64,000 nt of DNA from Candidatus Micrarchaeota archaeon (GTDB taxonomy: Archaea; B1Sed10-29; JAJRYS01): assembly GCA_964643685.1 (NCBI GenBank), contig CAZXTN010000001.1, positions 135,936 to 199,935 on the forward strand, given 5' to 3'. The notes below the pieces were generated by a model. The model searched no databases. It saw nothing but the letters and a program-made list of their open reading frames with translations, and was not told the origin of the DNA. Below, piece by piece: positions 5,596-62,019 of this stretch. Made by a program: the position numbers and the translations under genes. Each line of letters opens with the position of its first letter. The first letter of the stretch is position 1.

Positions 5596-5611
5596 AGAAA
5601 GTGATTAAAAA

Positions 5612-7391: not shown

Positions 7392-7392
7392 A

Positions 7393-7878: not shown

Positions 7879-7879
7879 A

Positions 7880-8203: not shown

Positions 8204-8217
8204 AAAAAGATGAAAAA

Positions 8218-8778
8218 ATGCAAGTAACAATAGCAGGAGAACCAGGAGCAGGAAGCACAACAATAGCAAAAAAACTCGCAAAAAAAACAGGATACAAATT
8301 AATAACAACCGGAGAAATAGTAAAACAAATAGCAAAAAAACAAAACAAGACAATAGAACAACTCTGGCAAGAACAAGACAAAAACCCAAAAAAAGAAAAA
8401 CAATTCAACAACAAAATAAACAAACAGCAAAAAGAACAAGCAAAAAAATACAAAAACGTGATAATAAACGGAAAACTAAGCGCATACAACAACCCAAAAG
8501 CAGAACTCAAAATACTCCTAACAGCAGACATAAAAACAAGAGCAAAAAGAACAGCAAAAAGAGACAAAAGAACAATAAAAAAACAACAACAAGAACTTGA
8601 AAAAAGAGAAAAAGAAGAAAGAACAAACTGGAAAAAAATGTACAAATTCGACTACGTAAAAGACAAAAACAAATACGACATGATAATAGACACAACAAAC
8701 CTAACGCCGATAAAAATAACAAACGCAATAATAAAAGAAATAAAAAACATACAAGAACAAGCAAAAAGGAGGAAATAG
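8218..8778 (+). CDS. cmk: Cytidylate kinase, archaeal type
   Basis: GEPGAGSTT P-loop and YDMIIDTTNL; L34e-cmk-L14e synteny. Confidence 0.85.
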   Translation: MQVTIAGEPGAGSTTIAKKLAKKTGYKLITTGEIVKQIAKKQNKTIEQLWQEQDKNPKKEKQFNNKINKQQKEQAKKYKNVIINGKLSAYNNPKAELKILLTADIKTRAKRTAKRDKRTIKKQQQELEKREKEERTNWKKMYKFDYVKDKNKYDMIIDTTNLTPIKITNAIIKEIKNIQEQAKRRK

Positions 8779-8780
8779 AA

Positions 8781-9047
8781 ATGGCAATCATAGAAAAAGG
8801 AAGAATCTGCATAATAACAAAAGGAGCAGACACAGGCAAAGAAGCAGTAATCAAAGAAGTAATAGACAAGAACTTCGTAATAATCATAGGAGAGAAAGTA
8901 AAAGAAAGACGCTCAAACATCAAGCACTTGGAACCAACAGACAGGACAACAAATACAATGCCAACACCAAAAACAAAACCAGCAAAAGAAAAAAAGCCGC
9001 AGCAAACAAAAAAAGCAGCACCTAAAAAGGAAGAAAAGAAAAAATAA
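8781..9047 (+). CDS. rpl14e: 50S ribosomal protein eL14
   Basis: GRICIITKGADTGK and NIKHLEPT motifs. Confidence 0.9.
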   Translation: MAIIEKGRICIITKGADTGKEAVIKEVIDKNFVIIIGEKVKERRSNIKHLEPTDRTTNTMPTPKTKPAKEKKPQQTKKAAPKKEEKKK

Positions 9048-9088
9048 AAACCCAACAGCTACTTCTCTTTTTTCCAAGTGAATAAAAA

Positions 9089-9919
9089 ATGAAAGGAATA
9101 ATAATCCTAGACAAGCCGAAAGGCATGACAAGCAACCAAACAAGTCTAGCAGTAAAGCAAATTCTAAACGAAAAAACAGCACACGTAGGAACACTAGACC
9201 CAAACGTAACAGGCATCCTGCCAATACTAGTAGGAAAAGCAATCAAACTGCAGGAATTTCTACAAGCACATGACAAAGAATACGTATGCATAATGAAAAC
9301 AAAAGAAAAAATTCCAGAAGAGGAGATAAAAAAAACATTCGAAGAATTCACTGGAAAAATTTACCAAAAACCACCTGAAATAAGCGCAGTAGCAAAAAAA
9401 ACAAGAGTAAGGAAAATTTACTCACTTGAATTACTGGAAACAAAAGACAACTTCATCTTATTCAAAACCTTCTGCCAGCACGGCACATACATAAGAAAAT
9501 TAATCGAAGACTTTGGATTAATCTGGGGAACAGAAACAGAAATGATAGAACTCAGAAGAACAAACGCAGGAGGATTCACAGAACAAGAAGCAGTAACTTT
9601 GCAGGAAGTCTTAGATGCTGTCAAATTAAAAGAAAAAAAACCAGAACTATTAAACAAAATAATCAAGCCAGTTGAATACGCAGTTAAAAGAATGCCCAAG
9701 GCAATAGTTAAAAACACAGCAGTTAAAAACATCCAAAACGGGGCGCCAGTATACTCAGCAGGAATAATCGAATTAAAAGGAGACGTAAAACACGACAAGC
9801 CAGTGGCAATCTTAACGCAGGAAGGAAAGTTAATAGCAGTTGGAATAAGCTTGTACGATAAGCCAGAGACAAGGAAACATAAAAAAGCAATAAAAACAAA
9901 AAAAGTAATGAGAATATGA
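9089..9919 (+). CDS. cbf5: H/ACA pseudouridine synthase Cbf5 (TruB family) with PUA domain
   Basis: LDKPKG, HVGTLDP, GTYIRKL and C-terminal PUA. Confidence 0.92.
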   Translation: MKGIIILDKPKGMTSNQTSLAVKQILNEKTAHVGTLDPNVTGILPILVGKAIKLQEFLQAHDKEYVCIMKTKEKIPEEEIKKTFEEFTGKIYQKPPEISAVAKKTRVRKIYSLELLETKDNFILFKTFCQHGTYIRKLIEDFGLIWGTETEMIELRRTNAGGFTEQEAVTLQEVLDAVKLKEKKPELLNKIIKPVEYAVKRMPKAIVKNTAVKNIQNGAPVYSAGIIELKGDVKHDKPVAILTQEGKLIAVGISLYDKPETRKHKKAIKTKKVMRI

Positions 9920-10471
9920 GATATGACTACTATGATAAATTCATTGACAAAAAAACAATAGGGATAAGAGACATAACTCCCATATTTTACAAAAAAAAAG
10001 GCATTCAACCAACTAATCAAAGACATGTCAAAACCATTTAAAAAACAAAAAATAGATAAAATAGCAGCTATTGACGCAATGGGATTTATACTCGGCTCAG
10101 CAATGGCTCTAGAATTAAAAACAGGATTTGTGCCAATAAGAAAAGAAGAAAGATTACCTGGAATGAAAAAAATAAGCACTTCATTCATAGATTTCAGCAA
10201 GAAGAAAAAAGCACTTGAAATAAACCAAGCATCAATTAAAAAAAATGAAAAAATATTAATAGTAGATGACTGGATGGAAACAGGCTCACAAATAAGAGCA
10301 GCAATCAAGCTAATTCAAAAACAAAAAGGAAAAGTAATAGGCATAAGCCTCTTTGCAGCAGAAAAAAAAGAAGAAACAAAAGAACTGTTTGACAAATACA
10401 AAATAAAAGCAGTAGGAGTATTTGAAGGAGAAGAACTTGAAAGAATAAAAAAACAAATAAAAAGGTATTAA
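9916..10471 (+). pseudogene. apt: Adenine phosphoribosyltransferase, split by a +1 frameshift near an A9 run (pseudogene, slippage or sequencing error)
   Basis: ATG 9916 frame gives RDITPIF. The second frame gives AFNQLIK...RK...LPG...IVDDWMETG. Confidence 0.75.
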
Positions 10472-10498
10472 GGAGTATAATAACTATAAAAAATAAAA

Positions 10499-10692
10499 GC
10501 GGTGGTCGCATAGTCCCTCGTAAAAACGAAGTTTTTTCGTTGGGTGCAATGGCTATTGCGCCAGCCTGGAAACAACCCATAAAAATACAAAAAGGTTGAC
10601 TGCAAGCTGGTGTCCTCCGGGGCACGCGAGTTCAAGTTTGCGACAAGGTTCCCTCGTCGAACTTTTCGCAAGCGAAAATCTCGCCCACCGCG
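10499..10692 (+). tRNA. tRNA-Ser(GGA) with three introns (about 10514-10549, 10572-10604, 10637-10678)
   Basis: Acceptor stem GCGGTGG/CCACCGC with G73, anticodon stem CCAGC/GCTGG, long variable arm, T stem GCGAG/CTCGC. Confidence 0.85.
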
Positions 10693-10707
10693 CTTTAGAA
10701 AGATAAA

Positions 10708-10723
10708 TCAAAACGTTTATAAA
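10708..10723 (+). promoter_or_regulatory. BRE/TATA promoter of the rps13 operon
   Basis: A-rich stretch followed by TTTATAAA; the same motif recurs before other operons. Confidence 0.55.
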
Positions 10724-10846
10724 TGAATTGAATTACAAATAATACACTTAAAAATTCTTTTTAAAAAAAGTCGGCGAGCTCCTTAAAAGCGATGACCTAC
10801 TGGAAACAAAACTAATTCAAAAAAAAATTGGAAAAAAAGATGCAAG

Positions 10847-11428
10847 ATGGCTAAAGTTAAAGAAGTTAAAAAAGAAAAACCTAAGCAGGAAAAGCAGAAA
10901 AAGAAAATTGTCCAGGAAAATTCAGAATTTAAAGGAAGGTTAAGGATAGCTGGAAAAGAAGTAAAAGGGCAGTATTCTATTAAAAAAGCAATTAGTCAAA
11001 TAAGAGGAATTGGAACTAATTTAGCTGACACTCTTGAAAAAATTATAATTAAAAAATTAAACCTTAAAGAAAATGAAAAAATAGGAAACTTGACAGATGA
11101 GCAGTTAGATGAACTTGAAAAAATAATAGCAAATCCGAAAGAAAACGGAGTACCTGCTTGGATGTTGAACAGAAAAAAAGACCCTGAAACAGGAGAAGAT
11201 AAGCATTTAATATCATCAGATCTTGACTTCCAGAAAAAACAAGACATAAAAGGATTAATTAAAATAAAGGCATACCGCGGAGTAAGGCACATGTATGGAT
11301 TGACATCAAGAGGACAGAGGACAAAAACAAGCGGAAGAAAAGGATTAACTCTTGGAGTACAGAGGAAGAAAAACAAGCCTGCTCAGAAGAAGAAATCAAG
11401 CGGGCAATCAAGTGGAAAAAAGAAATAA
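10847..11428 (+). CDS. rps13: 30S ribosomal protein uS13
   Basis: IRGIG, PAWMLNR and RGQRTK motifs. Confidence 0.95.
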   Translation: MAKVKEVKKEKPKQEKQKKKIVQENSEFKGRLRIAGKEVKGQYSIKKAISQIRGIGTNLADTLEKIIIKKLNLKENEKIGNLTDEQLDELEKIIANPKENGVPAWMLNRKKDPETGEDKHLISSDLDFQKKQDIKGLIKIKAYRGVRHMYGLTSRGQRTKTSGRKGLTLGVQRKKNKPAQKKKSSGQSSGKKK

Positions 11429-11441
11429 AAAAAGTGATTAA

Positions 11442-12209
11442 ATGGGTTCGCCAAGAAAACTAAGGAAAAAATACAACACCCCCTCACATCCATGGGAAAA
11501 AGAAAGAATAAAAGAAGAAAACAGGTTCCTTAAAGAATATGGGTTGAAAAACAAAAGAGAAATTTGGAAAGCAAAAACCATGCTTAAAAAGTACAGGCAA
11601 CAAGCAAGAGAATTAGTAGGTTTGTCAGGAGAAGAGAGAAAAGAAGCTGAACAAATACTTGTGTCAAAACTTCAAAGATTAGGTTTACTGCAAAAAGAAG
11701 CAGGATTAGATGAAATTTTATCCTTAAAAGTAGAAGACTTGCTATCAAGAAGACTACAGACAATTGTATGGAAAAAAGGATTGGCATTAAGCCCAAAGCA
11801 AGCAAGACAATTCATAACACACGGTCATATCTCATTAAATGGAAGAAAAGTAACAGCACCTGGAATGATGATAAAAGTAGAAGAAGAAAAAGAAATTGAC
11901 TGGTATGGCAAACCAATTGAATTGCAGTACCCTAAAAAAGACACTACTCTTGAAGTAATTGAAAAAGAAGCAAAAAAAGACAAGGAAACGACAAAATTAG
12001 AAGAAAAAGCAGCTGAAGAAATAATTGAAGAAGAGCAAGCAAAAGAGGAGAAACAAGAGAAAGAGGAAGAAAAAGAAGCAGCTGAAACAGCAGAAGAAAT
12101 TCAAGAAGAAAAAGAAAAAACAATAAAAGAAATAGCAGAAGAAGCAAAACCAACACCAGAAGAAAAACAAGCAGCAGAAGAGGTAAAAAAAGAAGCAGAA
12201 AGTGAATGA
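11442..12209 (+). CDS. rps4: 30S ribosomal protein uS4 with acidic C-terminal tail
   Basis: [15 protein letters not shown] and [10 protein letters not shown] motifs. Confidence 0.95.
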
Positions 12210-12211
12210 TT

Positions 12212-12607
12212 ATGGCAGCTAAAAAAGACATTTGGGCAGTAGCACATATTTACTCATCAAAAAACAATACAATAATAACAATAACAGACTTGACGGGAGC
12301 AGAAACAATAGCAAAATGCTCAGGTGGAATGGTTACTGACTCTCAGAGAAAAGAAGGAGCAGCTTCAACAGCAATGGTAGCAGCTCAAAAAGTAGCAGAA
12401 GTATGCAAAAACAGAAACATTTACGGATTACATATTCAAGTAAGAGCCCCAGGCGGACACAAGTCAAAAATGCCAGGACAAGGAGCACAAGCAACAATAA
12501 GAGCCCTTGCAAGAAGCGGAATAAGAATAGGCAGAATAGAAGACGTGACCCCAATCCCACATGACACGACACAAAAACCAGGTGGAAAAAGAGGAAGAAG
12601 AGTATGA
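12212..12607 (+). CDS. rps11: 30S ribosomal protein uS11
   Basis: [10 protein letters not shown] and GGKRGRRV motifs. Confidence 0.95.
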
Positions 12608-13197
12608 GCATGAAAATTGAAAACATAAAAGAAAAAGGAGACAAGATCACATTTACTTTAAAAGGACCTGTTGAATTAGCAAACGCAATAAGAAGAACAG
12701 CAATGGCAGAAGTTCCAACAATGGCAATAGATGAAATAGACGTGTATGAAAATACTTCAAGCTTGTTTGATGAATTCATCGCCCACAGGCTAGGAATGAT
12801 CCCATTAACAACTGACCTTAAAACATACGACATAAACAGCAAGTCAGAAAACAAAAAATCAGTCATAATAAGTTTAGACATTCAAGGGCCAGGAGTGTTT
12901 TACTCAAAAGAACTTAAATCAAAAGACCCTGCAGTAAAACCAGTCTACGACACAATCCCAATAATAGAATTAGCAGAAGGGCAAGCCCTTAGAATAGAAG
13001 CAAAAGCAAGACTAGGCAGAGCAAAAGAACATGCCAAGTTCCAATCATGCCTATGCTACTACAAGGAAAAAAAGCCAGATGAAGAATACCAAGTAACAAT
13101 AGAAAGCTACGGAAACCACAAGCCTAAAACAGTGCTCGAAGAAACAATAAAAATACTGAAAAGCAAAGCAGAAGAACTTGAAAAGCAACTAAAATAA
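12604..13197 (+). CDS. rpoD: RNA polymerase subunit Rpo3 (D), short form without Fe-S domain
   Basis: [15 protein letters not shown] and EHAKF motifs. Confidence 0.93.
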
Positions 13198-13216
13198 CAA
13201 AAGGTGCTAAGTTAAA

Positions 13217-13552
13217 ATGAAAAAAGGAACAACTAACCCGGAATTAAAAAAACTCATAATTACCTTGAAAAAAACAAAAAAACCAGCATTCATAAAAATA
13301 GCTGAAATGCTGGAAAAGCCAAACAGAAAAAGGCCAGAAGTCAATTTATGGAAAATAAACAAACACGCAAAAGAAGGAGAATTAATAATAGTGCCAGGAA
13401 AAGTACTTGCTCACGGTGAACTTACAAAAAAATTAACAATAGCTTCATTCAACGCATCAAAAAAAGCAATTGAAAAAATAAACAAAACAGGCAAATACAT
13501 CAAAATACAAGATGCATTAAAAGAAAAAGCGAGAATAAGAATAATGGGATGA
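13217..13552 (+). CDS. rpl18e: 50S ribosomal protein eL18
   Basis: TNPEL, VNLWKIN and VPGKVL motifs. Confidence 0.93.
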   Translation: MKKGTTNPELKKLIITLKKTKKPAFIKIAEMLEKPNRKRPEVNLWKINKHAKEGELIIVPGKVLAHGELTKKLTIASFNASKKAIEKINKTGKYIKIQDALKEKARIRIMG

Positions 13553-13559
13553 ACAAAAA

Positions 13560-13982
13560 ATGATAATCATAGACGGCGAAAACAGCATAATGGGAAGACT
13601 CGGAGCAAAAGTAGCAAAAGAACTCCTAAAAGGAGAAGAAGTCAGAATAATAAACGCTGAAAAAATAATCATAACAGGAAACCCAAAAAACACCGTGGAA
13701 AAATACATGCAAAGAAGAAACTTAAGAGACCCAGCAAAACCAGAAAAAAGCAGGAAAACACCAAGACGCCCTGACTTATTCGTAAAAAGAATAATAAGAG
13801 GAATGCTTCCATACAAGTCAAAAAAAGGACAAGAAGCATACAGAAGACTCCTAGTGCACATTGGAACGCCAAAAGAATATGAAGGAAAAGCAGTCAGAAT
13901 AGCAGAGTCAAAATCAAACACAAGCGATTACAAATACATTACAATTGAAAAACTATGCAAAGAACTAGGATGGAAAGGATGA
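13560..13982 (+). CDS. rpl13: 50S ribosomal protein uL13
   Basis: GRLGAKVAK and IRGMLPYK motifs. Confidence 0.95.
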   Translation: MIIIDGENSIMGRLGAKVAKELLKGEEVRIINAEKIIITGNPKNTVEKYMQRRNLRDPAKPEKSRKTPRRPDLFVKRIIRGMLPYKSKKGQEAYRRLLVHIGTPKEYEGKAVRIAESKSNTSDYKYITIEKLCKELGWKG

Positions 13983-13987
13983 GAAAA

Positions 13988-14419
13988 ATGGCAGTAAAGA
14001 AAAAAGAAAAGATAGTAGTTACAAAAGGAAAAAAGAAAAAAGCAGTAGCAAGAGTAAGAATAAGAGAAGGCAAAGGAGCAATAAGAATAAACAGGAAGCT
14101 AATAGACTCAATTGAAGAAAATTACTCAAAAGAAGTCATACTTGAACCAATAAAAATAGCAGAAGAAGTGCTTGGAAACAACTTCTACGAAAAACTAGAC
14201 ATAAGCATAAACGCGCAAGGAGGAGGAATAATGGGCCAAGCACACGCAGCAAGAACAGCCCTAGGAAAAGCGCTTATAGAATGGACAGGAAATGAAAAAC
14301 TAAAAGAAAAATACTTAGAATATGACCGTTCACTTGTAATAGATGACATAAGACAGAAAGAACCTAAGAAGTACTTAAGAAAAGGAGCAAGAGCAAAACC
14401 AATCAAATCATACAGGTAA
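13988..14419 (+). CDS. rps9: 30S ribosomal protein uS9
   Basis: GGGIMGQA and GARAKPIKSYR motifs. Confidence 0.95.
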   Translation: MAVKKKEKIVVTKGKKKKAVARVRIREGKGAIRINRKLIDSIEENYSKEVILEPIKIAEEVLGNNFYEKLDISINAQGGGIMGQAHAARTALGKALIEWTGNEKLKEKYLEYDRSLVIDDIRQKEPKKYLRKGARAKPIKSYR

Positions 14420-14432
14420 AGAGGTAAAAAAG

Positions 14433-14627
14433 ATGATAATACCAGTAAGATGCTTTTCATGCGGAAAGCCAATAGCACAACATTGGGATGAATACCAGAA
14501 AAAAATAGCTGAAGGCCAAACACCTGAAACAGCACTAAATGACCTGGGAATTGAAAGATACTGCTGCAGAAGAATGTTCCTCTCACACAAGGATTACCTG
14601 AAAGAAATAATCAAATACAAAAAATAA
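14433..14627 (+). CDS. rpoN: RNA polymerase subunit Rpo10 (N)
   Basis: PVRCFSCGK and RYCCRRM motifs. Confidence 0.96.
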   Translation: MIIPVRCFSCGKPIAQHWDEYQKKIAEGQTPETALNDLGIERYCCRRMFLSHKDYLKEIIKYKK

Positions 14628-14634
14628 AAAAAGA

Positions 14635-15813
14635 GTGTTTTCCTTGATAAAAAAAATAATAATCAGAAAAATAAAAAACTCAAAAAAAGAAGACACCATA
14701 GAAACAACAATAACCACAAACAAAGGAAAAACAAAAGCATCAGCTCCTTCTGGAACATCAGCAGGAAAACATGAAGTAAAAGCATACAACAAAACAATTG
14801 AAAACTCAATAAAAGAAGCAAAACAAGTTCTTCCGAAACTAATAGGCGAAGACGAAACAAACCAAGAAGAAATAGACGAGTTCTTGAAAAGCAACATAAA
14901 AAAGATAGGCGGAAGCATAGCAATAGCCACTTCAATAGCAATCGCAAGAGCAGGCGCAAAAAAACAAAAAAAACAACTATACCAATACATCAACAAAGGA
15001 GAAGAATACTCAAAACCAATAATGCTAGGAAAATGCATAGGAGGAGGAGCGCATGCAAAAAACTCGACAACAATACAAGAATTCCTCAGCATACCCCTAA
15101 CAGAAAACATGCGCAAAGCAGTGAAGATAAACAAGATAGTTCACAAAGAAACAGCAAGAATACTGAAAAACTACAAAGGATTCACTAAAAAACTAGACTA
15201 TGAAGGAGGATGGACAGCAAACATAACAGACGAAAACGCCCTAGGAGTATTATCAAGCGCAATTGAAAGAACAAGCAAAAAAACAAAAACAAACATCGCG
15301 TTAGGAATAGACGTCGCAGCAAGCGAATTCTGGGACGGAAAAAAATACAAATACAAAAAACACTCAAAAACACCAAAACAACACTATGACTTCATAAAAT
15401 ACTTAATAAAAGAATATGACATTTACTACATAGAAGACCCATTCCATGAAGAAGACTTCAAGTCAACAGCAAAGTTAACAAAACAATTCAAAGACAGGCT
15501 AATAGTCGGAGACGACTTGTTCACAACAAACCCTAAACGCCTCAAAAAAGGCATAAAATTAAAAGCAGGAAATTCAATAATAATCAAGCCAAACCAAATA
15601 GGCACATTGACAGAAGCTTATGAAACAGTTGAAATTGCAAAAAATAACGCTTACACGCCAGTGATCTCGCATCGCTCAGGCGAAACCAAAGATCCAGCAA
15701 TAGCGGATCTTGCTGTTGGATGGGGCATCCCTTTCATCAAAATAGGAATAAAAGGAAAAGAAAGGGAAGCAAAAACCAACAGATTGATAAAAATAGAGAA
15801 GGTGATGAAATGA
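14635..15813 (+). CDS. eno: Enolase (divergent)
   Basis: PSGTSAG, IEDPF, VGDDL, KPNQIG and SHRSGET motifs. Confidence 0.92.
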   Translation: MFSLIKKIIIRKIKNSKKEDTIETTITTNKGKTKASAPSGTSAGKHEVKAYNKTIENSIKEAKQVLPKLIGEDETNQEEIDEFLKSNIKKIGGSIAIATSIAIARAGAKKQKKQLYQYINKGEEYSKPIMLGKCIGGGAHAKNSTTIQEFLSIPLTENMRKAVKINKIVHKETARILKNYKGFTKKLDYEGGWTANITDENALGVLSSAIERTSKKTKTNIALGIDVAASEFWDGKKYKYKKHSKTPKQHYDFIKYLIKEYDIYYIEDPFHEEDFKSTAKLTKQFKDRLIVGDDLFTTNPKRLKKGIKLKAGNSIIIKPNQIGTLTEAYETVEIAKNNAYTPVISHRSGETKDPAIADLAVGWGIPFIKIGIKGKEREAKTNRLIKIEKVMK

Positions 15814-16589: not shown

Positions 16590-17813
16590 ATGAGTAAAAT
16601 GAAAGAGTTAATCAGAAAACACGCCTTAAAAAACGCATTAGAACATGAAGGAAAAGCAGCACCAGGCGCAGTGATAAACAGGGTCCTAGGAGAAAACCCA
16701 GAGCTAAAAAAAGACATGAAAACACTAGGACAAGCAGTAAAACAAGAAATAGAAAAAGTAAACCAAATGACTCTAAAAGAAATAAAACAAGAGCTTGAAC
16801 AAAAACACCCTGAACTGCTTGAAAAAAAAGACGAAGAAAGAAGAGACTTACCTGAACTGCCAGGCGACACTTCAAAAGTAGTCATGAGAATGGCTCCAAA
16901 CCCAAACGGTCCACTGCACTTAGGACACGCAAGACAAGCTATACTCAACTGGTTCTACGTAAAAAAATACAATGGAAAATACATACTAAGATTCGACGAC
17001 ACTGACCCAAAAAACAAAGTGCCACTAAAAGAAGCATATGACTGGATAATAGAAGACCTAAAATGGCTAGGCATAAAACCCGACGAAATACTTTACGCCT
17101 CAGACAGGCTAGATCTTTACTACAAATACGCTGAAAAATTAATTGAAATGGAAAAAGCATACATCTGCACGTGCCCACCTGAAAAATTCAGAGAATTAAA
17201 AAACAAAGGAGAACCATGCCAATGCAGGAACCTGCCAAAAGAAGAGCAGATGAAAAGATGGAAAAAAATGTTCACAGAATACAAAGAAGGAGAAGCAGTA
17301 TACAGAGTAAAAACAGACTTGAAAGACCCAAACCCTGCTCTGCGCGACTGGCCTGGATTTAGAATAATTGAAAACAACAAACACCCACGCAACAAAAACG
17401 CAAGAGTATGGCCATTGCTTAACTTCAACTCATCAATAGACGACCACCTCACAGGAGTCACGCATATAATAAGAGGAAGAGACCTTGACTTCACAGAACA
17501 CCAGCAAAAATACTTATACAATCACTTCAACTGGAAATACCCAGAAACAATAGTTACAGGAAAACTAAACCTAGAAGGAGCAATACTAAGCTCGTCAGAA
17601 ATAAAAAAAGGAATACAAGAAGGAAAATACACAGGCTGGGACGACAAACGACTAGGAACGCTAAAAGCATTGAGAAAAAAAGGACTAAAACCAGAAGCAA
17701 TAAAACAACTAATCTGGGACCTTGGAGTCAGAAAAAACAACGCCACAGTAACATGGGCAAACATAGAAGCAGCTGCAAAAAAAGCAGAAAAAAACAAGAC
17801 ATACAAAGAATAA
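16590..17813 (+). CDS. gltX: Glutamyl-tRNA synthetase, C-terminally shortened
   Basis: RMAPNPNGPLHLGH, RFDDTDP, THIIRG and GWDDKRL motifs; only 407 aa. Confidence 0.88.
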   Translation: MSKMKELIRKHALKNALEHEGKAAPGAVINRVLGENPELKKDMKTLGQAVKQEIEKVNQMTLKEIKQELEQKHPELLEKKDEERRDLPELPGDTSKVVMRMAPNPNGPLHLGHARQAILNWFYVKKYNGKYILRFDDTDPKNKVPLKEAYDWIIEDLKWLGIKPDEILYASDRLDLYYKYAEKLIEMEKAYICTCPPEKFRELKNKGEPCQCRNLPKEEQMKRWKKMFTEYKEGEAVYRVKTDLKDPNPALRDWPGFRIIENNKHPRNKNARVWPLLNFNSSIDDHLTGVTHIIRGRDLDFTEHQQKYLYNHFNWKYPETIVTGKLNLEGAILSSSEIKKGIQEGKYTGWDDKRLGTLKALRKKGLKPEAIKQLIWDLGVRKNNATVTWANIEAAAKKAEKNKTYKE

Positions 17814-46271: not shown

Positions 46272-49200
46272 TTAGATTACTTCTTGTTTTCTTAGCCCTC
46301 CATTGTTGTTCATGTAAGTAAAAGGCACTTTTCCTATTATTTTATGTGGTTTTTTAACCATTGGTATTCCAAGTTCTTTTGCTTTTTGTTCATAAAATTT
46401 TAAAATTAATTGTTTTGCTTGAGTGTTATGCGAGTAAATGTCATCTAAATATAACTCCCATTCGCCTGAACTATTTTTTGTTAAATACATGACTGCTCTT
46501 GCTTCCATTTTTCCTGTTTCTGTGTTTATTATTATAATTGGTTTTTTGGTTGCGTCCCCTATAAAACTCACTAAAGCAGGGTTAAATCTTCCTTTACTTA
46601 AGTAAGATTGGCAGGTGTTAAACTCTTTCCCAATATTAAACCACGATACGACATCTGCTTCATCGCTTGCTTTTAAAACTGCCTCTTTTTCATTTGTTTT
46701 TGCAAGTAGTCCTGCTGCATATTGTAAGTGTTTTGATGCATCTGAATTCTCTTCTGTAATCTGTTTTATTAGCTCTTGTATTTTGTTTTGAGCTTTGCCA
46801 TATTCTTGTTCTTCAATTAATTTTTGTATTTTATTGTACTCTTCTTGATGTTTTTCTTGGTTTTCTGCAGTGAGTTCTTGCTTGCTTTCTTCAAGTCTCT
46901 TAATTACTTCTTCTATTTTATCTTCAGTGGATTCTTTTCCTACTTGCATTGTTATGGTTGTTGTTTGTTTCCATTTATCTTGCAGTTTTTCAGGCACTCC
47001 TATTTCATCAAGTTCTTTATACTTGTACTCTTTGAATGAGTCTATTCCGGCAAGCCAAGCATTCATTATTTGTTTTAATGCTTCTTGTTCTTTTTCCGTT
47101 CTTATTACTTCATTTTTTACTTTTTTGAAATTGATGGTTTTGTAATGATTTTCTAATGTTCTTATAATCACCACCATGTCTACAAGTTGTTGTTCTTGGT
47201 GTTGGTCTTGCAATTGCTTGTATTTTATTTCAAAATTTTCTCCAAATTCTTGCGTTCCTGTTTTTACTATTTCATCTTGTAATTGCTTGTTTAATTTTTT
47301 TAAATCTGTTTCTTGGATGCTTATTTCTTTGTCAAATAATGCATTTAATAATTGTAATTTCTGAGCAATGCTTGGCAGTTCTTTTATTTGTCTTTTTCCT
47401 ATTTTTTCACCTGCTTTTAACTTATTTCTTATTATTGCTTGGATTTGTTCTGCTACTTTTTCATCTCTCATTAAAGGAATAATCAACTCTCTTGCTCTGT
47501 TCTTGCTTCTGCTTATGATGTAGCTGTTGAATACTTCTCTCATTTCCTCAGAAATCATTAACTCTAATTGTTTATAAGGCTTGTTTACCCATCCTTTCTT
47601 TAATCTTACTATTTCTTCACTTAAAACAGATAGAGGCAGTTCTTTTATTTTTAAAAACTTTTCAAAATGTTTACGGGATAAAGTGTCTCTGAAAATCACG
47701 CTTGCTTCTAAAAAAGTATTAACATCTTGTTTTTTTTCTACTAGTTTATATGTTAATTCAAGCAATTTATGTGACTGCTCTCCTTTTAATCCTTTTATCA
47801 TTAGAACATTTAAATTATCAACAAATGAGCGTAATTCTCTATTTTGATCTGTTAATTTAATTAATCTTTTCAATTCTTCTTCATCAAAATTTAATAATTC
47901 TTCAAGAGCAACTTCTCCAAGAAAAGTCGTAGCTGGATTTAGAGAACCAAAAGTTATATTGTCTGTTAAAAATTTTAGATTCTTCAATTTCCTTTCATTA
48001 TCTTCATTTTTTATTGCTTGTTTCAGTACATCTCTAAAGATATATTCTGAATAATTTAAGATTTCCTCTCTTTCTTCTTCATTAAATAACTCTTTAAAGA
48101 GTTTAACCTGCTTTATCTCATCTACTCTCATGTTTGGTTTGATTAACTTTTTTCGAAGTTCAGGGTAATCCATTAATTCTTTTATTATTTCTTTTTGCTG
48201 TTTCATTTCTTCAAAAGTTAATTTTTTAAGATTGTTTAAAACTGCCTTTTTTTCAGTTGGTTTTAATGCTCTTAGCTTTCTAGTTAATTCTTTATCATGA
48301 ACAATTTCTTCTACTGATTCTTTATTTTCTTTTTTTAATTCTAATGCTATTGACAAGAGATTATCTTGTTCTTCAATAATTTCATTAATCTCCCTCATCT
48401 TTGATTTTAATTTTTCAAAAGAAAAAGCTACTTTGGTTCTTAGTCGTTTTTCAAATTCAAATTCAAGTTCCTTGAAAAGAGACTCGTTGAATTTTCTTAA
48501 TTCAATGGATTTTTTTATTAACTTGTTTACTTTTTTTCTTTCATCCTGGCTTAATTCCCCATAAAAAGAGACTAAGGCAGGCGCTGAATTTTTTTTATAA
48601 AAATTAACTAAAGCAGGCGTCGGATTTTTTTCATCAATTTTAAGTTTTAAGTAAAAAATTAAGTTTTTAAATTCTTCTTCATTGACTAAATTGCTTTTTT
48701 TAATTTTAATTAAAAAATTCTCTTCTTCTAAAAGAGTATGGGAAGTAAATTTTTTGCTTGAACTAGGCAAATTTTTCAACAAGTAAAGGTAATCTTTCTT
48801 GCTTAAGTAACCTTCTTTAAATAATTTTATAACCAATACTTTTGCCTTAAGGTCATTTTCACTCTTTATTCTCTTTTGTTTTATTTCATTAAATAAATCC
48901 TTTAAAGCAGATTTTTCCGCAGCTTCTTGCTTTTCAAAAGGTGAAATTAATTCATTGTTAATCAAATTGATAAACTCAACAGGATTAAAATTCAATTCCT
49001 GTAAATAAGAAGTTGCTTCATAAACTTCTCTTATTTCCTCTTTTTTTGTAATACCCAATTTCGCTATTGCTTCGGAAAATTTGCTTGGCTCTCCTCCTGA
49101 TAAAGCAAATTTCTCTAAAATTTCAACAACATAATCAGCATACTCTTTATCTCCAGCTTTAATTAACTTGTCTACCTCTTTCAAATAAGAAATTGCATAA

Positions 49201-50243
49201 ACCCTCTTCTGTGTGAGCAGAACAATTCCATTAATTAGCTCTTTCTGCTGTTCTTCGCTTAATTTTTCAGCAACTTCAGAATACTTGTCAATTAAAAGAT
49301 TAGCATAAACTCTTCCTCTGAATCTTTCTACTTTGTCCCTTACTTTAACAAGCTTTAATACATCTGAAAAACCAGATTTTTCAACTAATAAAAAAACCCG
49401 CGGGTACTTTTTTTTATCCTCTTCAATCCTATCAATTAACTCCCTTAACTCAGAAGACCCTCTCACTTGTTTTTTAGTTACATTCAACTTCATTTGCTCT
49501 GCTTTTTCAAACAACTTTTGAATCACTTTGCCTCCTGGAACCTGCTGCTCTGCCTTAATGTCCTGAGATAACTTTTTTCTAGGCATGAACAACTTTACCC
49601 TATCATAAACGCCACTCGATTTGCTTCTATCACTCTTTTCTTGGTTCTTTATTAGTTGCTTTTTTTGAACTTTATTTCTTGTTTTAGAATCTGAAAAACT
49701 TTGCATTTTTAGGTTAGAGGTTATCCTTTTCCTCATTTTAAAAAAAGAAAACAAACTTAAAACATTTCCTCTTTTTCTTTTTTTAATCCCTATTTTTACT
49801 GAGTGGCTTTTTGCTTTTGTTAATGCTTGTCTCTCATTGTTTGCTTTTTTTATTTTTATTCTTGTTTTTAGAGTTATTAATTTGGTTGTTGTTTTCCGAA
49901 TTGGTTCTGTTGTTTTGGTTGCTATTTTTGGAATTGTTTTTGCTGGTGTTTTGTTTGCTTGAGTTTTTGTTTGTTTTTTCCATTGGGTTATTTTAGGTGT
50001 TGTTTTTGATGACTGTTGTTTTATTTTTGTTGTTGAGAGTTTTGTTAACTGTTCTTTTGTTAGGGTTAAGTTTTGTTGTTTTTCTTGCTTCTCTCTTATT
50101 TTTAATGCTTTTTCCAATTCTCTTCTTGCTTTCAGTTCCTGCAGTAATTGCAGCGCTTTTACTCTGTGCTGTAAAGAATTAGTTTTATTTTCTCCTGTTT
50201 TTTTTGCTGTTTTTTTTGCTTTTATTCTCTGCAAATAACCCAT
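46272..50243 (-). CDS. Very large K/E-rich hypothetical protein (1323 aa)
   Basis: Uninterrupted 4-kb ORF with basic low-complexity N-terminus, helical middle and globular C-terminus. Confidence 0.8.
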   Translation of the reverse strand: MGYLQRIKAKKTAKKTGENKTNSLQHRVKALQLLQELKARRELEKALKIREKQEKQQNLTLTKEQLTKLSTTKIKQQSSKTTPKITQWKKQTKTQANKTPAKTIPKIATKTTEPIRKTTTKLITLKTRIKIKKANNERQALTKAKSHSVKIGIKKRKRGNVLSLFSFFKMRKRITSNLKMQSFSDSKTRNKVQKKQLIKNQEKSDRSKSSGVYDRVKLFMPRKKLSQDIKAEQQVPGGKVIQKLFEKAEQMKLNVTKKQVRGSSELRELIDRIEEDKKKYPRVFLLVEKSGFSDVLKLVKVRDKVERFRGRVYANLLIDKYSEVAEKLSEEQQKELINGIVLLTQKRVYAISYLKEVDKLIKAGDKEYADYVVEILEKFALSGGEPSKFSEAIAKLGITKKEEIREVYEATSYLQELNFNPVEFINLINNELISPFEKQEAAEKSALKDLFNEIKQKRIKSENDLKAKVLVIKLFKEGYLSKKDYLYLLKNLPSSSKKFTSHTLLEEENFLIKIKKSNLVNEEEFKNLIFYLKLKIDEKNPTPALVNFYKKNSAPALVSFYGELSQDERKKVNKLIKKSIELRKFNESLFKELEFEFEKRLRTKVAFSFEKLKSKMREINEIIEEQDNLLSIALELKKENKESVEEIVHDKELTRKLRALKPTEKKAVLNNLKKLTFEEMKQQKEIIKELMDYPELRKKLIKPNMRVDEIKQVKLFKELFNEEEREEILNYSEYIFRDVLKQAIKNEDNERKLKNLKFLTDNITFGSLNPATTFLGEVALEELLNFDEEELKRLIKLTDQNRELRSFVDNLNVLMIKGLKGEQSHKLLELTYKLVEKKQDVNTFLEASVIFRDTLSRKHFEKFLKIKELPLSVLSEEIVRLKKGWVNKPYKQLELMISEEMREVFNSYIISRSKNRARELIIPLMRDEKVAEQIQAIIRNKLKAGEKIGKRQIKELPSIAQKLQLLNALFDKEISIQETDLKKLNKQLQDEIVKTGTQEFGENFEIKYKQLQDQHQEQQLVDMVVIIRTLENHYKTINFKKVKNEVIRTEKEQEALKQIMNAWLAGIDSFKEYKYKELDEIGVPEKLQDKWKQTTTITMQVGKESTEDKIEEVIKRLEESKQELTAENQEKHQEEYNKIQKLIEEQEYGKAQNKIQELIKQITEENSDASKHLQYAAGLLAKTNEKEAVLKASDEADVVSWFNIGKEFNTCQSYLSKGRFNPALVSFIGDATKKPIIIINTETGKMEARAVMYLTKNSSGEWELYLDDIYSHNTQAKQLILKFYEQKAKELGIPMVKKPHKIIGKVPFTYMNNNGGLRKQEVI

Positions 50244-53686: not shown

Positions 53687-54406
53687 TTGACAGAACTTCT
53701 TTTTTTAGAAGATTGTTATGCTAGAGAATTTAACGCTGAAGTTGTGCAAAACAACAAAGGCTACCTTCTTTTAAACAAGACTCTTTTTTACGGCAGAAGC
53801 GGAGGGCAACCAGGAGACACTGGAATTTTAAAAACAAGCGAAGGCAAGGAAGTGAAAGTGCTTGACACCAGGAAGGAGCAAGGGGAATTAAGGCATTATG
53901 TAGAAGAGGAAACCACAGTTGGAACAAAAGTACATGGGATAATTGACTGGGAAAGGAGATACAAGTTAATGAAAATGCATACTGCTCAGCATTTATTATC
54001 CGCAATTATTCTTGACAAGTACGGCGCTGAAACAGTTGGAAATCAAATACATGAGGACTATTCAAGAGTTGATTTCAAGCCATTCAAGCCAACTCAAGAA
54101 GTGCTTGAAGAGATTGTAAAAGAATTCAACAAAGCAGTTGAAGAAAATAAGAGAGTTTGGTTTGAAACTGTTTCAAGAGAAGAAATGCTTGAAAAAGTCG
54201 ATGAAAAAAGAAGAAAGCTGTTTGAAAAACTACCTTCTTTCATAAAACAAGTTCGCTTAGTGCATATTGAAGGAATTGACATCTGCCCATGCGCAGGCAC
54301 CCATGTTAAAAGCACATCAGAACTTGGATTCATCAAAATCACTGACGTTCAAGGAAAAGGAAAAGAAACTACAAGAATAAAATATGCCTTAATCAACCCA
54401 GTTTAA
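53687..54406 (+). CDS. alaX: AlaX trans-editing protein (AlaX-M)
   Basis: GGQPGDTG, HTAQH and CAGTH motifs. Confidence 0.93.
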   Translation: MTELLFLEDCYAREFNAEVVQNNKGYLLLNKTLFYGRSGGQPGDTGILKTSEGKEVKVLDTRKEQGELRHYVEEETTVGTKVHGIIDWERRYKLMKMHTAQHLLSAIILDKYGAETVGNQIHEDYSRVDFKPFKPTQEVLEEIVKEFNKAVEENKRVWFETVSREEMLEKVDEKRRKLFEKLPSFIKQVRLVHIEGIDICPCAGTHVKSTSELGFIKITDVQGKGKETTRIKYALINPV

Positions 54407-58044: not shown

Positions 58045-58120
58045 AAACAAACCCCTCTCCTTTAACTCCTTTTTTTAAGACCTTAAACCCAAAAAACATT
58101 CAATAAAAAAGGTGAGAAAT

Positions 58121-60013
58121 TTGACGCAATTTTTAAAAGAAATGGAAAAAAAAGTAAAAGAAATACTACCAGAAGAATGCATGGTTACAAAACTTGAACT
58201 AGAAGGACCAGACATCATAATCTACACTGCAAACATTTCAAAATTCATAGACGAAGACTCATTAATCAAAAAACTAGCAACTCAACTGAAAAAAAGATTC
58301 GTGCTACGCTCAGAACCCTCACAACTGCTTCCACCTGAACAAGCAGAGGACAAAATAAAAGAAATAGTGCCACAAGAAGCAAACATCTCAGCAATAACAT
58401 TCAACCCTGAATTCTGCGAAGTAAACATAGAAGCAGAAAAACTAGGACTAATCATAGGACACCACGGCGAAACACTTAAAAAACTAACAAAAGAGATAGG
58501 ATGGACCCCAAAACTCTTAAGAAAACCAACAACAAGCTCGCCATTAGTAAAAGCAATAAGAGACACTCTTGTAAAAGAAGCTAAAGACAGAAAAAAAATA
58601 CTTAAAAAAGTAGGAAAAAGAGTTTACAGAGACAACCCAAAACCAACTGACTGGATAAGAATAACAGGACTAGGAGGATGGAGAGAAGTCGGACGCTCAG
58701 CAACCCTCCTTGAAACACCTGAAAGCAAAATACTAATCGACTGCGGAGTATCAGTAGCATCAACTGAAAACGCATTCCCTTACCTATCATCAGTTAACTT
58801 TTCACTTGAAGAACTAGACGCAGTAATAATCACACACGGGCACTTAGACCACAGCGGATTCCTCCCTTACCTATTCCAATACGGCTACGACGGCCCAGTT
58901 TACTGCACCCCTGCAACAAGAGACGTAATGACTCTTCTTCAAAAAGATTACATAAGCGTCTTGGCAAAAAACGCCAAAACACCATTATACACTGAAAAAG
59001 ACATCAAAGAAGAAATAAAACACTGCATACCAAGAGAATACAATGAAGTAACAGACATCACACCAGACATAAGACTTACTCTGCACAACGCAGGACATAT
59101 CCTAGGAAGCTCAACAGTACACCTGCACATAGGAGAAGGAGCCCACAACCTCATGTTCACAGGAGACATAAAATTCGGCTACACTGAATTATTCGAATCA
59201 GCTGAAACAAGATACCCTCGCTTAGAAACAGTTGTGATGGAATCAACATACGGAGGGCCACAGGACGTCCAGCAACCAAGATACGTAGCTGAAAAAAAAC
59301 TAATAGAAGTCATAAGAAAAGTCACTGAAAACAACGGCACAGTCCTAATACCTTCATTCGCCATTGGAAGAGCGCAGGAAGTAATGATGGTCATTGAAAA
59401 CTACGCTCGTCAAAAAGGAGACTGGGACGTGCCAGTTTACTTAGATGGAATGACAAGAGAAGCAAGCGCAATACACTCAACTTACCCAGAATACTTAAAA
59501 AAATCACTTCAAAGAAGAATACTTCACAACAACTCCCCATTTGACTCCAACATCTTCCAGAATGTCGACCCATCGCAAAGAAAACAAATAGCACAAGACG
59601 GAAGAGCAGTCATACTAGCCCCAGCTGGAATGATGAACGGAGGACCTGTAATAGATTACTTCAAAGAAATCTGCGACGATGAAAAAAACGCAATTGTCTT
59701 CGTAGGTTACCAAGGAGAAGGCTCGCTTGGAAGGAAAATTCAAAAAGGAGCTAAAGAAGTCGTGCTTGAAAACAACGGCAAGTCACAGCAGTACAAAATC
59801 AACGCCCAAGTATATACTATCCAAGGATTTTCAGGACACGCTGACTTGAACCAATTACTAGGTTACTTCAAAAAATTAACTCCTCGTCCAGAGAGGGTTC
59901 TTACTGTTCACGGTGAAGAGAAAAAATGCGTAAACTTAGCACGCTCACTTGCATACAAGTTCAAAGTAGAAGCAAGCGCGCCTCGTAACCTCGATTCCAT
60001 CCGTTTAAAATGA
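58121..60013 (+). CDS. fttA: aCPSF1/FttA beta-CASP ribonuclease
   Basis: KH domains, HGHLDH, AGHILG and FSGHAD motifs; psmB synteny. Confidence 0.95.
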   Translation: MTQFLKEMEKKVKEILPEECMVTKLELEGPDIIIYTANISKFIDEDSLIKKLATQLKKRFVLRSEPSQLLPPEQAEDKIKEIVPQEANISAITFNPEFCEVNIEAEKLGLIIGHHGETLKKLTKEIGWTPKLLRKPTTSSPLVKAIRDTLVKEAKDRKKILKKVGKRVYRDNPKPTDWIRITGLGGWREVGRSATLLETPESKILIDCGVSVASTENAFPYLSSVNFSLEELDAVIITHGHLDHSGFLPYLFQYGYDGPVYCTPATRDVMTLLQKDYISVLAKNAKTPLYTEKDIKEEIKHCIPREYNEVTDITPDIRLTLHNAGHILGSSTVHLHIGEGAHNLMFTGDIKFGYTELFESAETRYPRLETVVMESTYGGPQDVQQPRYVAEKKLIEVIRKVTENNGTVLIPSFAIGRAQEVMMVIENYARQKGDWDVPVYLDGMTREASAIHSTYPEYLKKSLQRRILHNNSPFDSNIFQNVDPSQRKQIAQDGRAVILAPAGMMNGGPVIDYFKEICDDEKNAIVFVGYQGEGSLGRKIQKGAKEVVLENNGKSQQYKINAQVYTIQGFSGHADLNQLLGYFKKLTPRPERVLTVHGEEKKCVNLARSLAYKFKVEASAPRNLDSIRLK

Positions 60014-60087
60014 GGCGAGGGGTTTCAATTAATCTCTGATTAATTGCAAACCGAAAAACCTTGACTCAATAAGGTTGGGGTAAGGCA

Positions 60088-60681
60088 TTAGTCAATTATT
60101 TTTATTTCAGCTGAGAAATTTAATTCAGCGTCAAGCAGGAATTCCTTGTTGTTTTTTTCAAGCCATTTTTTTAAAAAATTAGGAGCATGCAAGTTAGCGC
60201 TTTCAAAAGAATTAGCTTTTTTCATTTCAACAACTTCATAATCGCTTTGCATTGATTCAAAACGAGCGCCTACAAGTGAAGAAAAAAGCTCCTTGAAAGA
60301 AAAAAGCCTGACACCTTCTCTCAGCACGTTTTGGAAATCTGCAGATGAAGGAGGGAGGGAAAACAAGTTGCCTTTGAATACGTAAACAGAGTCAAGGGCA
60401 TTTTTTCCAAACAGCTTGTCTTCGTTTGAAAACAAGTAAACTTCCGCCTTGTTTTCAGGCCATTGTTTTTCAAAAACTTTTAACCTGTAAGGAGCTGGCT
60501 TGTTGTAATTTTCATCAATTGCTTTTTCTATTTTTTTCTTAACAAGCAAGCCGATGTCAGAATGAGGCTGTTCTTTGACGCTGAAAAATTCAGCTATCTG
60601 CTCGTCAGTCAATTCAAAATCAACTTCAGCTTCAACTGCTTTTTCAAGCAAGTTAGTTATCTGGTTCTTGTTCCATTTCAT
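60088..60681 (-). CDS. Stand-alone protein resembling the SepRS C-terminal (anticodon-binding) region
   Basis: LTDEQIAE, LFSNEDKLFG, VYVFKGNLFSLPP, EGV and ANL are collinear with recalled SepRS C-terminal motifs. Confidence 0.65.
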   Translation of the reverse strand: MKWNKNQITNLLEKAVEAEVDFELTDEQIAEFFSVKEQPHSDIGLLVKKKIEKAIDENYNKPAPYRLKVFEKQWPENKAEVYLFSNEDKLFGKNALDSVYVFKGNLFSLPPSSADFQNVLREGVRLFSFKELFSSLVGARFESMQSDYEVVEMKKANSFESANLHAPNFLKKWLEKNNKEFLLDAELNFSAEIKIID

Positions 60682-60738
60682 TAATTAAAGTAAAGCAGAG
60701 GAAGTTATTTAAAGTATTTTTTTCAAAATGAATTTAGA

Positions 60739-62019
60739 ATGGATGAGTTTATTCAAGTAAAAGAAGTGCCTGAGCATGAAGGCAAAGAAGTGAAAGTGCG
60801 TGGATGGGTTTACAGGCAAAGAGCAGGCAAGAAAATGGCTTTTGTCTTGCTTCGTGATTCAAGCGGAGTAGTTCAATGCACTTTCAAAGAAGATGCTCCT
60901 GGGTTCAAAGAAGCTTCAACTATAAGCGTTGAGTCTTCTTGTATGATTACGGGAATTGTTTCTAAAGATGAGAGGGCGCCAGGTGGCTTTGAAATAAAAG
61001 CAAGTGACATTGAAGTTGTTCACTTGGCTGAAAGGTTTCCAATTACAAGGGACCAGTCAGATGAGTTCCTGCTTGATAACAGGCACTTGTGGCTTCGTTC
61101 GCAGAAAATGACTTCTGTGCTTAAAATCAGAAGCACTGTTTTCAGGGCAATTGATGATTTTTTCAGAAGCAGGGGTTATTATGAATTTCAATCTCCTCTT
61201 TTCACTCCAGCTGCTGGCGAAGGAGGCAGTACTTTATTTGAAGTTAATTACTTTGGAAGGAAAAGTTACTTGACTCAAACTTGGCAGTTGTATGCAGAAG
61301 CAGCTATTTTTGCACTTGAAAAAATTTACACTATTGCACCTAGTTTCAGGGCTGAGAAGTCAAGCACTTCAAGGCATTTGACTGAGTATTGGCATGCTGA
61401 AATGGAAGTTGCTTGGATGAGATTCAAAGAACTTCAAGTGGAAGCAGAGGAGCTGGTTAGTTTCATATGCAAAAGAGTAGCTGAGGAAAATGAAAAAGAG
61501 CTTGAGATTCTAGGAAGGAAGAAAGAGGATTTGTTGAAAATCACTAGCCCTTTTCCTAGAATGACTTATGATGAAGCTCTTGCGAAGTTAAAGGAGCTTG
61601 GAATGGAAGTGCCTTATGGCAAGGACTTGAGGACAATTGAAGAGAAGAAGCTGACTGAATTGTATGAAAAGCCGTTGATTGTAACTCATTACCCGAAGGA
61701 AATTAAAGCGTTTTACATGAAAGAAGCTGAAGAAGACAAGTCAAAAGTTCTTGGTTTTGACATGCTTGTAAAAGGCGTTGGTGAGATAATTGGAGGAAGC
61801 GAAAGAGAAGAAGACATTAAAGTGCTTGAAAAAAAATTGAAAGAGCAAGGCGAAGATGTTGACAAGTACAAGTTTTACTTGGATACTAGAAGGTATGGAA
61901 GTGTTCCTCACTCTGGTTTTGGCTTGGGAATTGAAAGAGTAGTGATGTGGGTGTGTGGTTTGGATAATATTAAGGAAGCGATTGCTTTCCCAAGGACACC
62001 TGAAAGGGACTATCCTTAA
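60739..62019 (+). CDS. asnS: Asparaginyl-tRNA synthetase
   Basis: OB fold, RHLWLRS, RHLTEYWHAE, GGSERE and PHSGFGLGIER motifs. Confidence 0.9.
   Translation: MDEFIQVKEVPEHEGKEVKVRGWVYRQRAGKKMAFVLLRDSSGVVQCTFKEDAPGFKEASTISVESSCMITGIVSKDERAPGGFEIKASDIEVVHLAERFPITRDQSDEFLLDNRHLWLRSQKMTSVLKIRSTVFRAIDDFFRSRGYYEFQSPLFTPAAGEGGSTLFEVNYFGRKSYLTQTWQLYAEAAIFALEKIYTIAPSFRAEKSSTSRHLTEYWHAEMEVAWMRFKELQVEAEELVSFICKRVAEENEKELEILGRKKEDLLKITSPFPRMTYDEALAKLKELGMEVPYGKDLRTIEEKKLTELYEKPLIVTHYPKEIKAFYMKEAEEDKSKVLGFDMLVKGVGEIIGGSEREEDIKVLEKKLKEQGEDVDKYKFYLDTRRYGSVPHSGFGLGIERVVMWVCGLDNIKEAIAFPRTPERDYP

Follow-up and report, generated by a model that had tools for sequence, protein, structure and literature searches.

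A stand-alone anticodon-binding domain of SepRS type, kept under purifying selection, in a Candidatus Micrarchaeota archaeon

What remains of an aminoacyl-tRNA synthetase that has lost its catalytic core, and what is the remainder kept for? This question is raised by a small gene in a 64,000-nucleotide stretch of the genome of a Candidatus Micrarchaeota archaeon (hereafter the window), where it is encoded divergently from asnS, the gene of asparaginyl-tRNA synthetase (AsnRS). Its product of 197 amino acids (aa) is almost certainly a remnant of O-phosphoseryl-tRNA synthetase (SepRS), made of the complete C-terminal anticodon-binding (AB) domain and a single N-terminal helix. The gene evolves under purifying selection, and its product may still bind the anticodon arm of a tRNA.

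Two Micrarchaeota bins of the pISA35 group were reported to encode small proteins homologous to the C-terminal AB domain of SepRS, also divergent from asnS (Mukai et al. 2022, Front Genet, PMC8762117, section 3.3.2). The original prediction, made from the sequence of the window, stated that no free-standing form had been described, and is superseded on this point. [quoted passage not shown] Our protein too is AB-only and encoded divergently from asnS, and nothing essential distinguishes it from the proteins described there; in its genome the cysteinyl- and asparaginyl-tRNA synthetases (CysRS and AsnRS) are present and the glutamyl-tRNA synthetase (GluRS) is truncated. The accessible text of a 2017 paper of the same group (PMC5424206) does not mention the small form, and our literature search on the SepRS AB domain and Micrarchaeota found no functional study of it. 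Hence, this type of gene and its pairing with asnS are already in print and are not new as a kind. We add a confident fold model, evidence for purifying selection, a conserved promoter-like box, the presence of the gene in all five genera of the family, and longer intermediates in the same genomic context. A known curiosity is thereby sharpened into testable hypotheses.

Homology to the SepRS anticodon-binding domain

The sepS model TIGR00470 (533 positions) matched residues 21-180 of the protein at its positions 348-517 (E 2.4e-12), with a score of 46.1 bits that lies under the cut-off for true enzymes (380.65 bits). All eight matches in a sequence search of the PDB were SepRS, the best being the Archaeoglobus fulgidus enzyme (2du3; residues 21-142 against 354-477, E 7.6e-8). 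A profile built from eight family members matched the PDB SepRS with an E-value of 5.2e-14 over residues 21-186, and a profile search of 1.84 billion representatives returned proteins of SepRS length, matched at their C-termini. The alignments with TIGR00470 and 2du3 agree with the original prediction that the residues from about 22 to the end are collinear with the C-terminal region of SepRS.

The predicted structure led to the same assignment. The AlphaFold2 (AF2) model, computed from an alignment of 85 rows, had a mean predicted local distance difference test (pLDDT) of 97 and a predicted template-modelling score (pTM) of 0.91. Foldseek, a check that had been proposed with the prediction, aligned this model to 2du3 with an E-value of 7.5e-16 and a template-modelling (TM) score of 0.84, and VIA-align gave a Z-score of 24.0 with a root-mean-square deviation (rmsd) of 2.5 Å over 183 residues. 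Overall, superpositions on 2du3 had rmsd values of 2.3-2.5 Å over 182-186 aligned residues. When 48,161 representative chains were searched by structure, only SepRS reached a Z-score of at least 8 (Z 23.8); these searches revealed no relative but SepRS, the next scores being 6.0 (a lectin) and then 4.2-4.6. The fold is thus otherwise seen only in SepRS among these chains. Significant matches to SepRS, by whose absence the prediction was to be judged wrong, were therefore found both for the profile (E 2.4e-12) and for the structure (Z 24.0), and the homology to the SepRS AB domain is solid.

Some general resources were uninformative. Pfam gave only two chance-level matches on the 197-aa protein (E 0.045 and 0.047). 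The Pfam profile for this region, PF18006 (SepRS_C, 31 positions, gathering score 26.9 bits), did not match it at E ≤ 10; the same profile gave 21.5 and 21.8 bits on two SepRS-type controls (P0019 and P0043), likewise below the gathering score, and 15.8 bits on a family member (P0010, residues 99-122). The ESM Atlas yielded no usable feature match: its own model was poor (pLDDT 0.41) and its structure rows had TM scores of at most 0.30.

The SepRS motifs listed in the original prediction are present in the protein, as LTDEQIAE, AP, SNEDKLFGK, VYVFKGNLFSLPP, EGV, ANL and NKEF. The nearly invariant positions of 85 aligned SepRS-type AB domains are also retained (P39, P64, L90, E142, and N163). 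Relative to SepRS (TIGR00470; 2du3, 2du7, 2odr, 5x6c), the AB domain is homologous, has the same fold and keeps the LxD, P39, SP/AP, KLxG and GN elements. The protein differs from the enzyme in having neither an N-terminal extension nor a class II core (motifs 1-3) nor an insertion domain: it has only 197 aa and one helix before residue 21, as expected from the claim that the catalytic domain is absent. It is incapable of aminoacylation. Moreover, the ExE motif that reads the anticodon has become SNE. Four database proteins from other lineages (P0031, P0041, P0051 and P0061, 177-182 aa) begin with a methionine right at the boundary of the AB domain; they may be genuine AB domains, split or free-standing, or else mis-called fragments.

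The origin of the N-terminal helix (residues 5-17, predicted by AF2 with pLDDT 92-96) is a different matter. The first 14 residues had been likened to the N-terminal helix of SepRS, but sequence tests of this likeness stayed at chance level. A profile of the first 22 residues of the family had a best E-value of 0.065 against 37 long SepRS-like proteins, where a reversed-sequence control reached 0.012, and a profile of eight SepRS N-termini matched only residues 1-4 of the 197-aa protein (E ~2). Profile-profile comparison showed a weak preference for another helix of full-length SepRS (positions 40-54; P 0.0098, against 0.36 for the reversed control). In the structural superposition, residue 5 of the model lies on residue 39 of 2du3 and the helix lies over the 2du3 helix that starts there. 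The 383-389-aa relatives found at the same locus also begin shortly ahead of that helix, and the extreme N-terminal one is missing from them. We therefore lean towards descent from the helix that opens the SepRS catalytic domain. One 210-aa relative (P0015) was alone in giving weak in-register matches to SepRS residues ~5-27 (best E 0.0023; reversed control 0.19).

Stepwise reduction and retention in the phylum

We searched 31 species genomes of the same phylum for SepRS and its partners. Only two of them encode sepS above the cut-off (G015, 473 bits; G016, 465 bits). The same two are the only ones with SepCysS above the cut-off (545 and 549 bits), on the contig that carries sepS; cysS, the gene of CysRS, lies on this contig too, a few kb away in G016. 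In another family (f11), five genomes have frames of 520-545 aa that scored 185-329 bits, with no SepCysS and with progressively degraded motifs 2 and 3, and the SepRS-like proteins of two further families (f10 and f12) scored 96-109 bits. In the sister family of the window's own (f2), five of six genomes have forms of 383-389 aa that lack motifs 2 and 3 as well as the insertion domain; in one of the five the form is spread over two contigs. The window's family (f1) has forms of 192-197 aa in all five genomes. A SepRS-type AB domain of any kind was present in 20 of the 31 genomes. CysRS was found in 28 genomes and AsnRS in all 31.

The genome that contains the window (695,104 bp, 12 contigs, 91.75% complete) had been proposed as a place to look for sepS, pscS and cysS. 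It encodes CysRS (472 bits, above the cut-off). SepCysS (TIGR02539) had no match at E ≤ 1 in this incomplete assembly, no frame reaches the TIGR00470 cut-off, and no SepRS core was found, the only class IIc core match in the genome being a 498-aa frame resembling the alpha subunit of phenylalanyl-tRNA synthetase (PheRS).

The reduced genes of the two sister families lie at the same place. Ten of the eleven asnS loci of these families have the gene divergent from asnS, and the gene of the RNase aCPSF1 is on its far side wherever flanking sequence is present. None of the 19 asnS loci in the other families has a SepRS-like gene within 1.5 kb. Because the 383-389-aa intermediates occupy the locus of the small form, they support the original prediction of a SepRS whose catalytic core was deleted. 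A maximum-likelihood (ML) tree of 82 AB domains, obtained by a quick search and rooted at the midpoint for drawing only, placed f1 and f2, together with further reduced forms (320-432 aa), to one side of a branch whose SH-aLRT support is 96%; the stand-alone forms, including the 210-aa P0015, clustered at 95%. Read plainly, these sequences represent a single lineage that lost the catalytic part bit by bit and in place but kept the AB domain. The small protein shares with the degenerate SepRS-like proteins (those described in Thermoplasmata and Alv-FOS5 Micrarchaeota in PMC8762117, and those of f10, f11, f12 and f2 here) the condition of a non-canonical SepRS descendant retained in the absence of SepCysS. 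In the tree they are part of the same lineage, but in them the core is still present, variously degraded, whereas the small protein has none. The degenerate full-length proteins of f10, f11 and f12 also share a C-terminal tail, RVKRLWxHEQPR (loci L017, L018, L020, L023, L026 and L028; also P0020, P0024 and P0025). Neither true SepRS nor the small form has this tail, possibly a docking peptide.

Outside the genome set, a metagenome scan returned one locus (L061) with a 71%-identical orthologue, in a block comprising psmB, aCPSF1, the small gene, asnS and a Na+/H+ exchanger gene. A search for related loci with a 12-row alignment gave only two, both known already. A 45%-identical family member is annotated at NCBI as a hypothetical protein in a Candidatus Micrarchaeota metagenome-assembled genome.

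The small gene is under purifying selection. Compared with its L061 orthologue, the ratio of non-synonymous to synonymous substitution rates (dN/dS) was 0.118 (NG86), 0.163 (LWL85) and 0.057 (ML). The same pair of loci gave 0.084, 0.137 and 0.056 for asnS, and 0.080, 0.160 and 0.035 for the Na+/H+ exchanger gene. With dS of 1.1-3.4 these ratios are rough, yet they are far below 1, and the neutral decay that this check was meant to expose was not seen. Between the five genera of the family, dN is 0.47-0.62 and dS is at saturation (undefined or above 1.2), and the frames are open, at 192-197 aa, in all five at 39-49% identity. The protein is 71% identical to its L061 counterpart, compared with 86-95% for the products of asnS, aCPSF1 and psmB. 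In all five loci of the family, the start of the small gene is preceded, at a distance of ~22-30 nt, by a TATA-like box (of the TATTTAAA or TATATAAA type). In three of them the spacer to asnS is short (53-60 bp), is shared by both genes and has the box in its middle; the box is a putative promoter. None of seven sequencing runs that contain the stretch was listed as an RNA data set. Kept by purifying selection and provided with its own conserved box, the relic must do something.

A synthetase cut down to its anticodon-binding domain and yet under purifying selection is rare, and it shows that this domain can be useful apart from aminoacylation. The graded series within one phylum, from true SepRS through dead full-length proteins and 383-389-aa forms to the 197-aa form, amounts to a natural deletion experiment in which the AB domain is the selected part.

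Candidate ligands and partners

We tentatively favour the view that the small protein is a stand-alone, non-catalytic binder of the tRNA anticodon arm, most likely that of tRNA-Cys, with altered or relaxed reading of position 34. The ancestral SepRS lost its class II core stepwise and in place, in a lineage of small Micrarchaeota-like archaea that no longer had SepCysS and in which a normal CysRS makes Cys-tRNA. On the favoured view the relic would still bind the anticodon arm, its base-specific reading of G34 being relaxed or altered, and would assist aminoacylation or tRNA handling without being essential to either. This view is favoured because recognition of the tRNA-Cys anticodon is the only known activity of the fold (entry titles of 2du3). 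G34, C35 and A36 are given as the major identity elements (PMC9976931).

Several observations weigh against the favoured view. The first concerns the residues that read G34, which we located from the sequences of wild-type A. fulgidus SepRS (2du3) and its E418N/E420N variant (2du5), which differ at exactly these two residues, and from the titles of the entries. The E418/E420 region aligns to S85-N86-E87 of the small protein, with a loop two residues shorter, and the same three residues align to E424-N425-E426 of Methanocaldococcus jannaschii SepRS. The original prediction rightly read the ExE motif as SNE and noted the altered GP motif (KLxGP reads KLFGK). Position 85 is a serine in 11 of the 12 family sequences, so that the first acid is lost, and position 87 is variable (E, N, K or S). 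Hence, the canonical read-out of G34 is not conserved. Mutating E418/E420 in A. fulgidus SepRS retargets the enzyme to opal and amber tRNAs. We found no open text that lists all anticodon-contacting residues of 2du3.

A gene for the presumed ligand was also not found in the assembly: no tRNA-Cys gene was reported by ARAGORN with introns allowed or by RF00005, each of which reported 21 tRNA genes. The gap extends to tRNAs for Ala, Asp, His, Lys, Met, Phe and Trp, none of which was found in this 92%-complete genome, and split, permuted or unassembled tRNA genes are possible. Introns are present in many of the 21 tRNA genes, and one of the calls shows an odd anticodon of 4 bases. Finally, 11 of the 31 genomes of the phylum, three of them at least 90% complete, have no SepRS-type AB domain at all, which indicates that the function is dispensable.

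The remaining points against the favoured view are those that suggest its main rival, which we consider rather unlikely but not negligible, namely that the protein is an adaptor or scaffold. The protein-binding face of the AB domain would have been kept, and the relic would dimerise or dock a partner helix and link translation proteins with no RNA binding. The best-conserved family-specific segments are two loops, PxSDxG (residues 39-44) and FEKQ[WF]xExK (70-78), which align to loops 376-380 and 411-414 of M. jannaschii SepRS. In that enzyme these loops, with 494-498, hold the N-helix of SepCysE between two AB domains, as described by Chen et al. 2017 (PMC5688128). Protein binding is thus as much indicated by the conserved loops as RNA binding. 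The adaptor view would also fit the loss of the anticodon-reading ExE and the mostly acidic character of the family: 10 of the 12 stand-alone sequences have an isoelectric point below 6.1. However, the net charge of true SepRS AB domains spans -20 to +14, so that charge does not discriminate RNA binding. Furthermore, the loop mapping comes from a pairwise HMMER alignment of low identity, P39 and G44 are conserved across SepRS generally and hence are no necessary mark of a new function, and the anticodon site of the tRNA is close to the same surface (PMC5688128). No partner is known either, SepCysS being absent from the genome (SepCysE was not searched for).

If the ligand is indeed tRNA-Cys, the relic could represent a novel type of factor for the handling of tRNA in symbiotic archaea whose genomes are minimal, and could serve in engineering as a small module, ready for use, that binds anticodons. 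Synthetase-derived or synthetase-associated tRNA-binding pieces that act in trans include PylSn, the Trbp111/Arc1p-type domains and SepCysSn. These offer a possible working analogy only and are not known to be related to the small protein in sequence or fold; our Pfam and fold searches of the small protein gave no match of these types. PylSn works with a live catalytic subunit, whereas this genome holds no live catalytic partner for the relic.

It is improbable that the relic became a retargeted anticodon reader that recognises another tRNA and serves AsnRS or GluRS in trans. In its most specific version, to which we give about as little credit, the relic, transcribed back-to-back with asnS from a shared TATA-like box and deprived of the acid pair for G34, would have a different tRNA as its target and would supply one of these synthetases with specificity or affinity; the anticodon domains of synthetases would then be exchangeable modules in reduced genomes. 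The pairing with asnS, kept in 10 of the 11 loci of the two sister families and in L061, the 53-60-bp spacer with its central box in three of five loci, and the change of ExE are consistent with such a role, and support of other aminoacylation systems is also what Mukai et al. suggest (PMC8762117). Yet the pairing is confined to two related families (none of 19 other loci), the adjacency to aCPSF1 is equally conserved, so that the pairing may be inherited synteny, and AsnRS is itself complete in length and carries an OB-fold anticodon domain of its own. A prediction of the complex between AsnRS (29-row alignment) and the small protein (85-row alignment) scored 0.00 in both runs; made without controls, it gives no verdict either way.

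GluRS would be the other candidate for such help. The only GluRS of the genome (407 aa) matches archaeal gltX models only to ~395-429 of 560-567 positions; its C-terminal anticodon-binding domain is missing, and PF03950 has no match anywhere in the genome. Its gene lies in the window at positions 16590-17813 (+), and the next gene (L7Ae) begins 84 nt later. Our literature search found no description of such a short GluRS. The short form occurs in 10 of the 31 genomes of the phylum and the full-length form in 15. The short form is found in all five genomes of the window's family, but also in G007, G009 and G010, from three families that have no SepRS-like protein, and in G015 and G016, whose family has true SepRS. 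Conversely, full-length GluRS occurs in sister-family genomes that have the 383-389-aa form (G003, G004, G006) and in one that lacks it (G005). The distributions of short GluRS and of the SepRS relic therefore do not match, and there is no co-occurrence.

That the gene is a functionless relic on its way to loss is highly improbable. The catalytic function is gone, 11 of the 31 genomes do without such a domain, and the protein evolves faster than its neighbours (71% against 86-95% identity to L061), all of which would suit decay. But decay is contradicted by dN/dS values of 0.06-0.16, by intact frames of similar length in five of five genera at 39-49% identity with saturated synonymous sites, and by the retained core AB residues, the very confident fold prediction and the conserved upstream TATA-like box. 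There is next to no chance that the relic works as the AB subunit of a split SepRS: in some Parcubacteria sepS genes lack the AB domain (PMC5424206; PMC8762117) and some ~180-aa database matches begin exactly at the domain boundary, but this genome has no SepRS-type core, its only class IIc core match being the PheRS-alpha-like frame, and no SepCysS, an absence that is strong, if not absolute, at 91.75% completeness, and the four other genomes of the family likewise lack both.

The locus and its surroundings

The features of the locus are listed in Table 1. The divergent pairing with asnS was recognised in the original prediction, and the two genes are 57 bp apart. The AsnRS assignment is based on two models above their cut-offs (NF003037, 491 bits; TIGR00457, 436 bits) and on the Pfam domains tRNA_anti-codon and tRNA-synt_2. 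The aCPSF1 gene is a member of the conserved block psmB - aCPSF1 - small gene - asnS. A hairpin downstream of the small gene is possibly its transcript end; our terminator consensus scan, which needs at least three G-C pairs, did not call it.

Table 1. Features of the small gene and its neighbours, in window coordinates.
Feature	Position	Strand	Basis or remark
Coding sequence of the stand-alone SepRS anticodon-binding-domain protein, 197 aa, ATG start, intact	60088..60681	-	Open reading frame (ORF) list; stop codon 60088-60090
AB domain proper, residues 21-197, collinear with A. fulgidus SepRS 354-534	60091..60621	-	Sequence and predicted fold
Residues 1-20, with a single amphipathic helix (residues 5-17) that is predicted to lie packed against the AB domain	60622..60681	-	AF2 pLDDT 92-96
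Divergent spacer of 57 bp between the small gene and asnS	60682..60738	.	TATA-like box inside
TATA-like box TATTTAAA, ~24 nt from either start codon; putative promoter	60706-60713		Read from sequence
asnS, full-length AsnRS, 426 aa, OB-fold anticodon domain and class II core	60739..62019	+	Divergent neighbour
aCPSF1/FttA-type beta-CASP RNase	58112..60013	+	Convergent downstream neighbour; Pfam KH_TffA, Lactamase_B, Beta-Casp, RMMBL
Candidate transcript end of the small gene: 6-bp stem, 8-nt loop, then TTTTT	60054..60076	-	12-34 nt past the stop codon

No tRNA gene was found within the window by ARAGORN or RF00005; a tRNA cluster lies outside it, at C1:108630-113769 of the same genome (G000). 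The window contains a second synthetase-derived stand-alone domain, an alanyl-tRNA editing protein of the AlaXM type (53687-54406, +), which scored 260 bits, below the 300-bit cut-off. An ORF of 1323 aa without Pfam or NCBIfam match (46272-50243, -) adjoins the gene of the PolD large subunit. An archaeal host is confirmed by a block of genes for ribosomal proteins, SecY and cytidylate kinase at positions 1-15000 and by the other archaeal information-processing genes of the window, which include those of PolD, Cdc6/Orc1, aIF2-gamma, aIF5B, Kae1 and the archaeosine TGT.

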